Origin: a virus
Lineage: Duplodnaviria > Heunggongvirae > Uroviricota > Caudoviricetes
IMG/VR virus record: IMGVR_UViG_2740892440_000003
DNA: 61,023 bases
Reading direction: 5' to 3' (one strand)
The notes below the pieces were generated by a model. It did no database searches, was not told where the DNA came from, and was given only the letters and a program-made list of their open reading frames with translations. A program made the position numbers and the translations under genes. This document shows, piece by piece, positions 9,676-58,900 of the stretch; position 1 is the stretch's first letter; every line of letters begins with the position of its first letter.

Positions 9676-9993
9676 ATTGGCAGCCTCCTTAGACGTTGGT
9701 ATGTAACCACCGCAGAAGAGACCAATCTTGCTGGCGGTGGACTGTACGGAGTTGGCCTTACTGGCGTCCAAGGTAACCAGCCTACCCGAAGGTAGCCCCA
9801 TACAGCCCACCATTGTAGAGGTGTGCGTGTACGCCGATACAAAAAAAGACGCGAGCGGCGTCTGTATCGCCTTAGACTTAAGCGGGAGGCCAATCCCGGC
9901 ACCCGTTTTAATGAGGTGCCTGATAAGCATAAACCGAAAATGCCTCAAGGCGCAAGAGGTCAGGTTCAATGTAACATCGGTAGTTAAAAAACA

Positions 9994-36033: not shown

Positions 36034-36681
36034 CCTCTCACTCCACTATTTAACGAATAAAAAAGCTGCGGTGCCGGGTTCCTCCCGGTGTCCTTTGGCT
36101 GGTTATCCACCGTGGACGTGGAAACAAGGAGAAATAATGGACAGATATAACCATTTCCCCGCGTGCGCTTAGCCGCATTCACCGCAACGGAAAGAGCATT
36201 CTTGGTGGACCTGTAGATTGGGATATGAACCCGTTACAGGAGAATGCTCTTACCTGTTACGTGCTCCGTTTCGTGGAGCTAACGGCGGGTGATCGGGCCG
36301 CACCAGACTGGACTTATTTCAGCGTTATGCTCATGCCAGAGAATCAAACTGTGATGGTCGGTGCTGAACTCCGACACAGGGTTGTAGCAAGCCCCGCAAA
36401 GCGCGCACTACTGTAGTTTCGGCACATCAGCCTGTGCATTCACCACAATGTTGAGAACACTGGTTGTCACGCTGCAACGCAACATTTATTCGTAGATTGG
36501 GATATGACCCCGTTACGCCAGTGTTCTCAACGTTGTAGTGCCGGTTACGGTTCCGGCCAGGCCTCTTCCTCAACGGGGTGTTCTCCATACGGACTACCGT
36601 TTATTGGTCGTTCCTGCGGTTTATGTTGTGAAGCCAGATGCTTATCTTCTGGTTGCTTCAAAGAGCTGCACTTCATCACAA

Positions 36682-36756
36682 CGGTAAGGGTACTTCGTAG
36701 GGATTCGAACCCTCTGCCAAGCACGGCGATCTCCGACGTCGCAAAATACCCTTACC
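36682..36756 (-). ncRNA. tRNA-like element (acceptor-like 10-bp stem enclosing a perfect T-arm), not a canonical tRNA
   Basis: Minus strand GGTAAGGGTA...AGGGTTCGAATCCCT...TACCCTTACC, 75 nt, directly upstream of tRNA-Thr; no anticodon arm could be folded. Confidence 0.3.
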
Positions 36757-36764
36757 TGTTGTGT

Positions 36765-36840
36765 TGGTGCCGGTTAACGGACTCGAACCGCTGACATCCT
36801 GCTTACAAGGCAGACGCTCTACCAACTGAGCTAAACCGGC
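36765..36840 (-). tRNA. trnT: tRNA-Thr (anticodon UGU)
   Basis: GCCGGTTTAGCTCAGTTGGTAGAGCGTCTGCCTTGTAAGCAGGATGTCAGCGGTTCGAGTCCGTTAACCGGCACCA; canonical cloverleaf with encoded CCA. Confidence 0.85.
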
Positions 36841-36842
36841 AT

Positions 36843-36918
36843 TGGCGATGGTGGATGGATTTGAACCATCGACCCGTTGATTAACAGTCAACCGCTCTAA
36901 TCGCTGAGCTACACCATC
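36843..36918 (-). tRNA. trnA: tRNA-Asn (anticodon GUU)
   Basis: GATGGTGTAGCTCAGCGATTAGAGCGGTTGACTGTTAATCAACGGGTCGATGGTTCAAATCCATCCACCATCGCCA; perfect 7-bp acceptor stem, GUU anticodon. Confidence 0.85.
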
Positions 36919-37583
36919 ACTTGCCGGGTACGTCTCCGGCGAGGGCTTCCACCTCCGTATGCTTTTCGGCGCACCGCGCCCTGGCTGCAATTCGGTAACA
37001 GGGGATGCATAACCCTGGCTTCCAGCGTGATTAGCGCTTTCAGCATGACGGGATATACCCGTAAATTCGTGGAACTGTACCCAAAGTGCTGTTAAGCACC
37101 GCTGTTACGCTGAAAAGAAGACGCAACAGGAAAGGACGCTGACCAACAGATGGCCCCTTCTCGTTCATCTGGTTAATCACACCAGCGCCCTTACCTGTTG
37201 TGCCTCCCCGTTCCCTAATACACAGACGGGGACACTCTGCGGTCGATTTTTTGACGGGGGACGACTCATACCCCGTGGCGTCTGGCTTCTTAGGCCGCTA
37301 CCATCATCAGATCATCGTTTGCATTTACTTTAATGGTCAGTTTCTAAACCGCCGCAAAGTCGCTAACCATGACGAAAACCCTGAAAAAAACGCCCACCCG
37401 AAGATGGGCAAACTGGAAGCTCGTAACGCACTTCGGCGTTGCCACTTAGGCGCATGGTCAACCTGGCAACTCGGTGGTTTGTCTGGGAGGACTATGCCCA
37501 GCCATGCTTACCGCCGCGCCTGTCGCGGCTAACAGCTAAATCGCTCTATAAATCACGATTCATTGAGGCGATATTACACTAAT

Positions 37584-37600
37584 AAATTTATTAGAGCAAT
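37584..37600 (-). promoter_or_regulatory. C1 operator, perfect 17/17 match
   Basis: aaatttattagagcaat is the exact reverse complement of ATTGCTCTAATAAATTT; overlaps the dmt stop codon, upstream of the tRNA cluster. Confidence 0.8.
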
Positions 37601-40600
37601 ATACCTAAAACGTCATGAGCAACACCTCGAGTGTCCCCCTTACAAGACACAGAACGTCTGGCAAAAAGAGGTTCCACTCTGAAGCCATTGTCATGATAAA
37701 GCTCTCTGATGTTTGGCGCGCCACTGTTAGTAATGAGAACCTTTGCACCTCGGCGATGAGCATCCGTCAACAGAGACACCAGGCGTTTTTGCTCTTCAAA
37801 CTTAAAGTCATGACCGGAATAGTTCGTGAATCCCTCTGTATTTGGAAGCGGTTCATATGGCGGATCGCAAAAAATGACATCTCCTTCTCCGGCAGCTTCA
37901 ATCACCGCAGCAAAATCACCACATACAAACTCAGAACGACCTTCCGCACCGAGGAAGGCTTCCATCTCCTGTAATGGGAAATACGGAGTTTTATACTTCC
38001 CATAACCGACATTGAACTCACCGGCCTGGTTGTAACGCGTCAATCCGTTAAAACAATGTCGGTTCAGGAACAAAAACGCCGCTGCGCGATGTAAATCATC
38101 ATAGACTTGTTTGTTAAACGCATTCCGTACTGCCAGGTATCCTTCCTGTGTGTTGTAGTCCTGGAAAAACTGATGCGCCAGTGTGATAAGTGAATGCGCC
38201 TCGCGTTGCAGAGTCTTGTAAAAGTTAATCAGGTCAGCATTCACATCATTTAGCAGATTTTCCTGGTATCCGGCATTCATGAAGACAGCTCCGCCACCGA
38301 CGAAAGGTTCAATCAGGCGCTTCCCTTCTGGCAAATAGCGAAAGATTTGTTCCAGAACACCAAATTTTCCACCAGCCCATTTGAATATGGACCGTTCGAA
38401 TTCTGCCGCTGGTTTAACTTTTCGCTCTTTTGTTTCACGCCCTTCATTCTGCCGACATGCAGCCTTGGTTATCCGCTCGCCAATCCAGCGCATTACTGGT
38501 ATCGCCATACTATTGCCGATCGCTTTGTAACGCGGTCCGCCAGCTGCAAGCATCGCGGCCTCTTCTTCGCTTAAATCTGGATAGTGATTGTGCAGATATG
38601 CCAGTTCATCTGAATTAACTTTTTTACGCTTTTCCGTAGGGATCAACGTATGCCCATCAGGAAAACCTTGAAGTCTCTCACATTCGACAGGGGTAAGACG
38701 GCGGACAGCTACTTCTTCGTTTCTTACTTCATAGCAAACAGCAGTTGGATTTTGAGCCATTAGAGATGGTGAAGTATTCTTAGTTGCTGCATGTTGTGTA
38801 CCACTCATACGCTCAGGAAAAGCCAATGTAACAAGATGCTCATGGCTTTCTTGCTCACGCGCCCGCAATGTACCATGCCCTTCTGACCAAAAACCTGCTC
38901 CAGTGCTGCTAAAAACGGCAAGGTCAGTGGCATCTTTAAAGTCTCTTGCCTTTACTGTCGATGCGGTTTCATCGTCAATATATTCCCCAAATGCCGCCAT
39001 CCTGAAACCGTTTACGGCTTTCGTCGATTTCATACCGGGAGACATGCCAGCGTGTAGGCATGGATTTAGGCTTTCGCCACTGATTGCAGCGCCATTTGCA
39101 GTAATGGCGGAAGCGATTTCCTTCTTTTTCGGCTCGGCGCAATATTCCGGCGCACGCCTTCGAACTCAAAAAGTACCGTTGCGGGATCGAGGTCTGTTCG
39201 AGCACTTGCGACAACAAACACGCGTCGGCGTCGTTGTGCCACTCCGAAGTATTGGGCATCAAGGATTCTCCAGGCCACCTTTCTCTGCGGTCCATAAATA
39301 CAACCACACTGCGGCCACTTTGGAACATGGCAACCGGTTTTGACATCCCACCGCCAGAACGCGTTACTTTTTCCTGATTCAGGTCGATCACCTGGTTCGA
39401 ATAGCGCATCTTCTCCAGCCAATCCGGCAAGGAAACATCCGAAGGCGTTATCTGCCGATGACAAGACTCCTGGGACATTTTCCCAGACGATAACGGCTGG
39501 TTTGAGAAATGACTCAGCCCGTTTGTCGTCAATTGCATTTGCAAGCTCCACATACTTTAAAGTTAGCGCGCCACGCTCATCATCAAGCCCACCACGTAAT
39601 CCAGCGATACTGAATGCCTGACAGTTATGGACCACCGCACCATTGAGGATATAGGAATGATCACCTTCGACTTCTATGTTGTATACAGTATCTAGGCCTA
39701 CCGATTTAAACTCTTTGACTGTTCGTAAAAGCATTCCATGAGCCAATCTTGATTTACGTGACAATTTCTGCGGGCAGATTGTTACCTGATAATAATTCCG
39801 TTGATTTACCACGCGATCCTCAATCACTTTTTTGGGCTCAACTTCAATAAAGCTGACCGAAGAAACATAACCACAAGTCTGTGACAACTCCGCAACGCCC
39901 CAAGCAAGCGCAGGACTAACACTATTAATTCTAAATCCCGCTTTACCACTTGGTGTCCCATCAGTATCAAGATAGCCTTGTAAAAACACATGACGCAATG
40001 GATGCGACATCACCCATGCAGGGATACGCTTAGCATGGCTTAACTCGCCAAAATGTTCATTAAGCCAATTGGCATAACACGTATCATTCAAGGTTACTTT
40101 GATGCTCCCTCGGATTTCGCTTGCCACGGAAAATATGTTTTCTGGTATGCGGCAATGAAACTTTCTCAATTTCTGGCAATTTATGCCAAAAACAACCGCC
40201 TTCTTAGATTTACCTCTCCATCTCCTAATATATCCATCGCCAACATAAGCGCCCGCAAGATACATAGCCTGTTCTTCAGACAAGAACCGAGAACAAATAT
40301 CTGGAGATGCAATATTGAAATTAGTTAGAGCACACCATTGATATCCCGGCATATCACATGCTGCTCGCCATTCCGGTTCAGACAACAACTCTCTCTTAAA
40401 ATATGTGCCATTTTTCCGGGTGTTTTGGGCTTTCCACCGAACCGCCAGGAAGGGATGGTCATTGGTTGTTCTTATACCTAAAGGCTGCCCAACGGCATTA
40501 AGTAACCCCGTATTAGCTATTTTTGAACCAACTCTTTTTACTTGTTGTAACCGCCCGAGATGACTGACTACGTAATCGCCAGGGCAAACATCTTCTATTG

Positions 40601-58649: not shown

Positions 58650-58900
58650 ACGGCCTCACAATCAGGTTTAACAACCTGCTACCCGCTGCTAAACAGGTGG
58701 CAGGACGTGACGGGGTTAGCAGACTGGCGATTGTGATACCAGCAGGCCGAAGCCTCCCCATCACGCCCCACCATAATTTGGGCGTAACGCGGTTTTACGG
58801 ACACAAAAATACCGCAATATCAGATATCTGCGGCTGTCCGCACAATCATTCAGGCTGCTAAACCCGGTCGCAGAATTTGCTACGACGGCGGAACTATAAG
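58650..58900 (-). ncRNA. c4: c4 antisense RNA / leader region (boundaries approximate)
   Basis: Structured GC-rich leader between the Op51-type operator and icd, where P1 encodes c4; exact ends not determined. Confidence 0.3.

Follow-up and report, generated by a model that had tools for sequence, protein, structure and literature searches.

Unannotated RNA structure families in the ban-operon leader of a P1-like phage-plasmid and their possible role in RNA processing

This study concerns a viral DNA record of 61,023 nucleotides (IMGVR_UViG_2740892440_000003, the whole of which is called the window below) and three inverted-repeat elements, E1, E2 and E3, situated on its minus strand beside two tRNA genes. 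The elements represent unannotated phage RNA structure families of a generally familiar kind, and are neither tRNA genes nor the proteins upl and plp that the bacteriophage P1 record places opposite them. They appear to fall into two overlapping families, a scaffold family (E1, E3 and a fourth hairpin, H0) and a junction family (E2 and E3). By analogy with known processing sites, it is tentatively proposed, as the best account found though one short of probable, that they serve as cis-acting RNA processing and stability cassettes in the C1-controlled leader of the ban operon.

36678..36762, minus strand: E1, a scaffold hairpin with a 5 + 15 bp basal helix and a bulged A
36441..36540, minus strand: E2, a three-way-junction RNA made of helix P1 (22-bp basal helix), helix P2 (invariant motif) and helix P3 (small hairpin)
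36185..36259, minus strand: E3, the invariant P2 motif on a scaffold basal helix, with an unpaired UCCACCA in place of P3
36492..36516, minus strand: copy of the invariant motif in E2, GUAACGGGGUCAUAUCCCAAUCUAC, a direct repeat with invariant columns
36213..36237, minus strand: copy of the invariant motif in E3, GUAACGGGUUCAUAUCCCAAUCUAC, a direct repeat with invariant columns

Two overlapping RNA families

The hairpins are real and beyond chance. An earlier note on this DNA had described three inverted repeats with central hairpins and a 25-nucleotide (nt) direct repeat, all of which the sequence and a repeat search located where it had placed them. In E1, GGTAAGGGTA and TACCCTTACC enclose AGGGTTCGAATCCCT, with arms at 36683-36695 and 36744-36756. 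The arms of E2 (36441-36463 and 36518-36540, 23 nt) are 91% complementary, those of E3 (36189-36202 and 36241-36254, 14 nt) 93%, and the two copies of the direct repeat (36213-36237 and 36492-36516) are 96% identical. The stems named in the earlier note are present, but the outer helices reach about 17-22 bp and exceed the lengths given there. Folded as minus-strand RNA, E1, E2 and E3 have z-scores of -4.34, -7.90 and -5.93, and none of 200 shuffles was equally stable; when the whole 710-nt leader was folded (z -5.0), the three elements stayed separate domains. G·U pairs are confined to the minus-strand reading, with two in an acceptor-like helix of E1 and one in H0, and natural variants turn G-C or A-U pairs into G·U pairs that are compatible with this strand only. 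Together with covariance-model matches restricted to the minus strand (below), this pattern identifies the minus strand as the one that carries the structured RNAs.

E2 and E3 have in common an invariant loop region, UAACGGGNUCAUAUCCCAAUCUA, which can be written UAACGGG-N-UCAUAUCCCAAUCUA with every position invariant but N. When viral contigs were scanned for the 17-mer common to both elements, the matches fell into P1-like loci and a further group, of prophage loci, where the motif is carried by a hairpin with entirely different stem sequences. One architecture is found in both groups: a long P1, a P2 consisting of a stem, a 2x4 internal loop, a GGG/CCC helix and a 7-nt loop, and a short P3. 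A covariance model trained solely on the 16 prophage copies (Yersinia/lambdoid) matched E2 with 45.9 bits (E 4.5e-10) and E3 with 41.5 bits (E 7e-9), full-length and only on the minus strand, whereas a sequence-only model of the same alignment gave 18.8 and 19.8 bits, respectively, restricted to the loop. The gap between the two models means that pairing, maintained in sequences that differ, contributes over 20 bits of the score. For 45 distinct sequences, in an alignment fitted to the model, 94.2% of cells pair, compared with 79.8% in column shuffles (0 of 500 reached the observed value) and 32-46% in slid controls, and 18 pairs change on both sides. An attempt with MAFFT and RNAalifold on mixed P1 and prophage copies misregistered the stems, recovering 22 pairs, and was replaced by the covariance-model test.

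The motif keeps a similar company in distant phages. It lies between a Q-like antiterminator gene and holin/endolysin genes in one prophage locus (L010). In Yersinia phage PY54 it is flanked by a methyltransferase gene on one side and the holin gene on the other, and the order there is that of P1: a small hairpin, the junction motif, a GUGGUG...CACCAC domain and a terminator. Yersinia alsatica also carries the motif. A scan of one genome per species for the exact motif gave 30 matches, 28 of them chance-like and in unrelated taxa; the real ones were Yersinia alsatica and an Escherichia P1-like contig. BLAST with the prophage-type motif matched neither complete genomes of E. coli nor plasmids in PLSDB. 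Searches of the window, prophage and scaffold loci against Rfam (15), at gathering score and at E<=10, returned no family for E1-E3, and matches to microRNA precursors were rejected as reflecting merely long hairpins. Neither the motif sequence nor a paper on processing of the P1 ban-leader RNA was found in the literature searched. As judged from sequence, the motif of E2 and E3 is an undescribed three-way-junction RNA family common to P1-like phages and the late-operon leaders of PY54 and lambdoid prophages. A shorter relative (ACGGG-loop-CCC), UUACGGGUAUAUCCCGUCAU, occurs at 37045-37064 (minus strand), 5' of tRNA-Asn, and phage D6 has it too.

The basal helix of E1, E3 and a further paralogue absent from the earlier note, H0, is homologous, with the form CACAAC(A)GGUAAGRG.../...CYCUUACCGUUGUG, a length of about 19 bp, a bulged A and a sequence-conserved outer end.

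37124..37200, minus strand: H0, fourth paralogous scaffold hairpin, ACAGGUAAGGGCGCUG.../...CAGCGUCCUUUCCUGU (z -3.7; found by repeat search)

H0 is located upstream of tRNA-Asn, so that paralogous hairpins bracket the tRNA pair. The slot 3-4 nt past the CCA of tRNA-Thr is occupied, depending on the P1-like phage, by one of the scaffold inserts E1, E1b and E1c, or directly by E2 or E3, and many relatives carry an extra module and E1b after E1. In a wider scan the scaffold was found in many viral contigs, including some loci without tRNA genes. Its interchangeable inserts are 40-140 nt long, while the outer helix measures 16-27 bp (median 19) independently of insert length across 21 hairpin types, including E1, E2, the E3 type and H0. 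For the insert statistics, orientation was set solely by the bulged A, and a T-arm-like hairpin was defined as a UUCRANY loop on a stem of at least 3 bp. The 19 insert types (1371 nt) contain seven such hairpins in the forward direction and none in reverse; 2000 shuffles averaged 0.05 and never gave more than 1. About one third of the types hold a true T-arm-like hairpin, that of E1 among them. The T-stem shows compensatory changes between related inserts (GUCUG/CAGAC versus GUUCG/CGAAC). Polymorphism density per feature was discarded because paralogous copies cross-matched. The L192 and L020-type inserts, from viral contigs, comprise 100-110 nt on the scaffold with two T-arm-like hairpins and a D-loop-like CUCAGUUGGUAG; no tRNA is called in them, and they may represent a fused or decayed tRNA pair under partial selection.

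The position of E1 relative to the two tRNA genes is as follows.

36843..36918, minus strand: tRNA-Asn (GUU), canonical, called by ARAGORN and Rfam
36765..36840, minus strand: tRNA-Thr (UGU), canonical, called by ARAGORN and Rfam
36699..36713, minus strand: T-arm-like hairpin of E1, AGGG-UUCGAAU-CCCU, a repeat match to tRNA T-loops

E1 starts 3 nt past the CCA of tRNA-Thr, and its insert consists of the T-arm-like hairpin and an acceptor-like 7-bp helix. The hairpin is a perfect T-loop hairpin and, alone among those of the three elements, fits the T-arm pattern of tRNAs, which calls for a stem of about 5 bp and the loop U54-U55-C56-R57-A58-N-Y. Its distance from the T-loop of tRNA-Thr is exactly 78 nt, the same as that between Thr and Asn (repeats 36701-36711, 36779-36789 and 36857-36867). 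By inspection, an acceptor-like helix UAUUUUG/CGAAGUA, containing two G·U pairs, lies directly 3' of the T-stem; it is followed by C-CCU instead of N-CCA, at the point where a third 76-nt tRNA would terminate, and its flanks are paired into the extended helix. E1 has no anticodon arm: its acceptor strand and T-arm are only 27 nt apart. The best outside matches of its 3' third are T-arms of phage tRNA genes, individually non-significant (E about 3). Given the 78-nt register, the C-CCU end and these T-arm matches, E1 looks like the 3' portion of a tRNA captured in the scaffold.

E2 and E3 are different in this respect. The first base of their GGG-NUCAUAU-CCC hairpin is variable (G/U/A) at the position of U54, U stands at that of A58, and the stem has 3 bp; because of the variable "U54" and the U at "A58" the loop is not a T-loop. 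The P2 loop (N-U-CAU-A-U on three G-C pairs) is similar to an anticodon loop of the initiator type; its stem, however, gives way after 3 bp to the 2x4 internal loop. The suggestion of a tRNA-like minihelix thus applies to E1, with its T-loop, acceptor-like helix and 78-nt register, and to the wider scaffold family, but is not supported for E2 and E3, whose hairpin is the invariant core of a separate three-way-junction motif. Degenerate tRNA genes are at best a partial description, limited to the 3' third of E1. As the earlier note had stated, no element folds into a full cloverleaf: in default, -ps and -ps80 modes ARAGORN calls only tRNA-Asn and tRNA-Thr, its metazoan-mitochondrial mode gives noise matches only and none on E1, and the Rfam tRNA model at E<=10 likewise matches the two genes and none of E1-E3. 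Relaxed thresholds of the kind proposed in the note yield no tRNA-like score for the elements.

The ban-operon leader

Over the 1.4 kb around E1-E3 the sequence shares 98.6-98.9% identity with bacteriophage P1 and with many P1-like phage-plasmids, and by this measure the window is a P1-like phage-plasmid. The same stretch is matched in 635 of 5426 complete E. coli genomes (658 records), about 12%. In the P1 reference record the minus strand here is the C1-repressed ban operon, in the order ban promoter and operator, a "dicF-like region", trnA (Asn), trnT (Thr), about 650 nt, tciABC, trnI and ban. Read 5' to 3', the minus strand contains Asn (36918 to 36843), Thr (36840 to 36765), E1 (36762 to 36678), E2 (36540 to 36441) and E3 (36259 to 36185), so the elements lie downstream of the tRNAs and not upstream, as had been supposed. 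The untranslated leader would accordingly comprise, from the ban promoter, the dicF-like RNA, H0, tRNA-Asn, tRNA-Thr, E1, E2 and E3, followed by open reading frames (ORFs), tRNA-Ile2 and ban.

Further structured domains lie beside the elements.

36067..36186, minus strand: STnc100-like domain (RF02076, 38.0 bits against a gathering score of 47, E 2.2e-6)
36538..36558, minus strand: small hairpin GCCGGAACCGUAACCGGCAC immediately 5' of E2, with the repeat GTGCCGGTTA at 36538-36547 and 36767-36776

The STnc100 match, below gathering score and partial (model positions 31-147), adjoins E3; E1-E3 themselves are unmatched. The closing helix of its domain is UGCGGUG/CACCGCA; GC and a run of six U come next, immediately ahead of the first ORF. 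A GYGRUGAAUGC sequence stands 3' of every hairpin and opens a domain closed by CAYCAC, similar domains being present after E1 and E2; the first small hairpin of these domains covaries among relatives (GCACA-GGCUGA-UGUGC, GCGCA-GGCUGA-UGCGC, UCGCA-GGCUGA-UGCGA). Stx2 phages have STnc100 in their late region, 75 nt 3' of the stx2 operon (PMC12370729); its relatives include the PasD prophage small RNAs (bioRxiv 10.64898/2026.05.13.724894). The small hairpin 5' of E2 resembles the 3' end of tRNA-Thr (CCGUUAACCGGCACCA), and it stands before the junction motif in PY54 as well.

Several other features of the operon and the window were observed. The dicF-like region annotated in P1 corresponds to 37374-37475 (minus strand) and was not matched by the Rfam DicF model at gathering score. 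It ends in a strong intrinsic terminator (37391-37410, 8-bp stem and seven U) between the ban promoter and the tRNAs, so that everything 3' of it needs read-through for expression. 3' of the leader (34989-36033, minus strand), a 78-aa membrane-like ORF and a 275-aa SPFH/Band-7 lipoprotein replace the tciA-tciB-tciC of P1, an arrangement identical to that in phage vB_EcoM-Ro157c2YLVW. The tRNA set varies among P1-like phages (L002, L003, L005, L012, L037, L110 and others), comprising Asn or Arg(UCU), with or without Tyr, Thr, and with or without Ser(UGA); a few nt after the terminal tRNA of each variable array stands a long hairpin closed by CA-CAAC...GUUG-UG. The window also contains two C4 antisense RNA genes (9730-9919 and 58693-58899, minus strand), one with an isrK match and the other with a c4-a1b1 target match, which suggests two immunity-type loci.

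The P1 record annotates upl (36225-36416) and plp (36417-36794) on the plus strand opposite E1-E3, and a protein-coding function of this region is extremely improbable. The ORFs exist in P1, upl is intact in most close relatives, and upl is among the phage genes upregulated in a dksA host in P1vir RNA-seq, in gene-level counts, so that reads were counted on it (PMC8201110). Neither gene, however, shows the third-position bias of its neighbours: polymorphisms by codon position are 3/3/1 in upl (one synonymous, six non-synonymous) and 7/4/10 in plp, including one stop, compared with 3/0/12 in tciA and 13/10/67 in ban. plp extends antisense into tRNA-Thr and is truncated in the window; among 97 related loci, just 25 have it intact with no stop. 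Neither has a Pfam match, and in the 30 E. coli records listed of 658, RefSeq/PGAP annotates tRNA-Thr only (in a few with tRNA-Ser) or nothing, with no coding sequence or non-coding RNA. upl and plp are probably annotation artefacts.

Proposed processing cassettes and competing explanations

Of the functions raised in the earlier note, processing signals or small RNAs appear to be the most plausible class for E1-E3. In the account tentatively favoured here, we infer that the leader is transcribed as one polycistronic precursor, in which the two-turn basal helices would be entry sites for the double-strand-specific RNase III and barriers to 3' exonucleases. They would split the precursor into tRNAs, STnc100-like small RNAs, insert RNAs and the downstream mRNA. 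The hairpin invariably abutting the last tRNA, a few nt past its CCA, would define the 3' trailer of that tRNA. Cleavage would be by RNase III or RNase P, and a factor for tRNA processing, or another one acting in trans, is probably recruited by the T-arm or invariant loop. The RNase III role is proposed because of the length and position of the helices and the analogy with rRNA, T7, lambda and DicF processing; the outer helices (16-27 bp, median 19) offer the approximately 20 bp of mostly continuous double-stranded RNA expected of an RNase III stem.

A number of points weigh against this account or the evidence behind it. Helix length and analogy are what suggest RNase III. The alignment used to count pairs was fitted to the model, which inflates pairing, and the unbiased evidence is the gap between the structural and sequence-only models; each subgroup by itself varies little, and the 16 prophage copies taken alone show no two-sided pair change and pair no better than shuffles. 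Recombination through the 25-nt repeat has produced natural E2/E3 chimeras (L014, L041, L050) that have lost about 280 nt, leaving the arms non-complementary and destroying both helices, so the elements are dispensable. Knock-down of trnT, plp and upl by CRISPR interference had no effect on plating (PMC10695390), and this, together with the chimeras, makes any function accessory. Finally, a pure processing stem leaves unexplained both the 21 invariant nt of the E2/E3 loop region and the recurrent T-arms of the inserts, which suggest an additional factor-binding or trans-acting role.

The main competing explanation, compatible with processing cassettes although in itself rather unlikely, is that the hairpins or their excised inserts are trans-acting small RNAs working through the T-arm or invariant loop, for example by binding or sequestering a tRNA-binding protein of the host, or through base-pairing to one of its RNAs. 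The invariance of a 21-nt loop segment on covarying stems fits such a role, as do the enrichment of T-arm-like hairpins and the covariation of their stems between L020-type and L192 inserts. In PY54 and Yersinia alsatica the junction motif and the next domain end at an intrinsic terminator like a discrete unit, in Y. alsatica and L010 a terminator also precedes the motif, and the neighbouring domain resembles the Hfq-associated STnc100. Yet a search of 35700-37700 gave no promoter-like site, close relatives differ freely by swaps and deletions of inserts, and no partner for the loop in the 61-kb window beat shuffles (best non-self duplex -19.9 kcal/mol, shuffles -18 to -23). A neutral origin, in which the elements are relics of decayed tRNA genes in a fast-evolving phage array, is quite unlikely, even though the T-loop, acceptor-like 3' strand and C-CCU end of E1 stand in exact 78-nt phase with the array, a fragment of the tRNA-Thr 3' end lies 5' of E2, relatives have Tyr, Ser or Arg genes in the same region, and the 3' half of E1 is closest to phage tRNA T-arms, in individually non-significant matches. 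Such decay does not predict helices of about 19 bp kept over 19 insert types, covariation in all three helices P1-P3, or a loop that stays invariant from P1-like to Yersinia phages; moreover, there is no cloverleaf and no covariance-model score, and E2 and E3 have no T-loop sequence.

It is improbable that the elements form a cis-regulatory leader (an attenuator, riboswitch-like sensor or antitermination RNA) in which the motif senses a factor and controls terminator read-through into the first ORF. Covarying stems around invariant nucleotides are typical of aptamers, and P1 E3, PY54 and lambdoid prophages, in the last two cases upstream of holin, have in common the succession of motif, structured domain, U-tract or terminator and first gene. 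Against this, no terminator and no ORF come after E2, a leader holds several copies, inserts on one scaffold differ completely, and the U-tract past the last domain has no compact hairpin beside it and is not called as a terminator. Still less credit is given to DNA-level repeats, i.e. miniature inverted-repeat mobile elements or recombination sites with incidental hairpins. Their arms do look like terminal inverted repeats, and they are multi-copy with swapped interiors and common inter-copy deletions and insertions, but the junctions resemble unequal homologous recombination between arms. In loci whose orientation could be judged, the copies keep one orientation within long non-coding leaders and, in P1-like arrays, lie on the tRNA strand; elsewhere their orientation was set by the bulged A. 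Selection on a single RNA strand is indicated by compensation through G·U only and by the asymmetry of the bulged A, and internal helices covary. The mobile-element form of this reading was rejected, since no target-site duplications flank E1 or E3 and the G·U pattern is strand-specific.

Beyond processing cassettes, a bolder and improbable idea is that the ban leader and the Yersinia and lambdoid late leaders are arrays of scaffolded cassettes, in which the helix of about 19 bp directs the excision of interchangeable small tRNA-mimic RNAs that serve as trans-acting decoys or baits. If this were true, T-arm minihelices of the E1 kind would be excised, and the GGG-NUCAUAU-CCC of E2 and E3 would perhaps be another mimic, resembling an initiator-tRNA anticodon stem-loop. 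Targets would be host tRNA-binding enzymes, e.g. anticodon nucleases, tRNA-targeting defence toxins and enzymes of tRNA processing or modification, and the locus would be one of RNA-based counter-defence evolving by cassette swapping beside phage tRNA genes.

P1 is a model phage, yet this stretch is mis-annotated as two hypothetical proteins or left blank; the results favour withdrawing upl and plp from the gene list and entering two RNA families in Rfam. They provide a testable handle on the maturation of tRNAs and small RNAs from the long untranslated leaders of temperate phages, on what STnc100-type prophage RNAs are embedded in, and on whether phages deploy tRNA-like decoy RNAs.

Comparison with known systems

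The tRNA cluster of phage T4 encodes the stable RNAs species 1 and 2 (rnaC, rnaD), structured non-tRNAs of unknown function that are co-transcribed and processed with the phage tRNAs. T4 is a virulent, unrelated phage, and no similarity of its RNAs to E1-E3 is expected. A precedent in P1 itself for RNase P acting on a non-tRNA is the precursor of the C4 antisense RNA of P1 and P7, which was reportedly found to be RNase P-processed (Hartmann and colleagues, 1995).

E1 is like tRNAs and minihelices in having a consensus T-loop hairpin by a 7-bp acceptor-like helix and an NCC-like 3' sequence, within a tRNA array. It differs from them in the lack of a D arm, an anticodon arm and a cloverleaf, and in that its would-be 5' leader and 3' trailer are base-paired in the extended helix; E2 and E3 are further removed, having no true T-loop. 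The P1 scaffold is modular in the manner of YrlA (RF02553), with a long sequence-conserved basal helix, a bulged nucleotide and a T-arm-containing tRNA-like module, although the topology of the tRNA-like module in YrlA is different. The only match to the YrlA model is on tRNA-Thr, with 19.9 bits against 69, and there is none on the scaffold hairpins of other phages. The domains after each hairpin are like STnc100 (RF02076) and PasD in running from GYGRUGAAUGC through a small CCGG-type hairpin to CAYCAC.

RNase III stems are known to flank 16S and 23S rRNA and to occur at sites in the phage T7 early transcripts, in the lambda N leader and in DicF maturation. The P1 hairpins differ in that their outer helix is sequence-conserved across phages, their inserts are short, diverse and often T-arm-bearing, and cleavage is here a matter of inference. 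Like those stems, they are helices of about two turns (16-27 bp, with mismatches and bulges) that bracket RNAs in polycistronic non-coding or phage transcripts, and a dicF-like RNA is present in the same operon as E1-E3.

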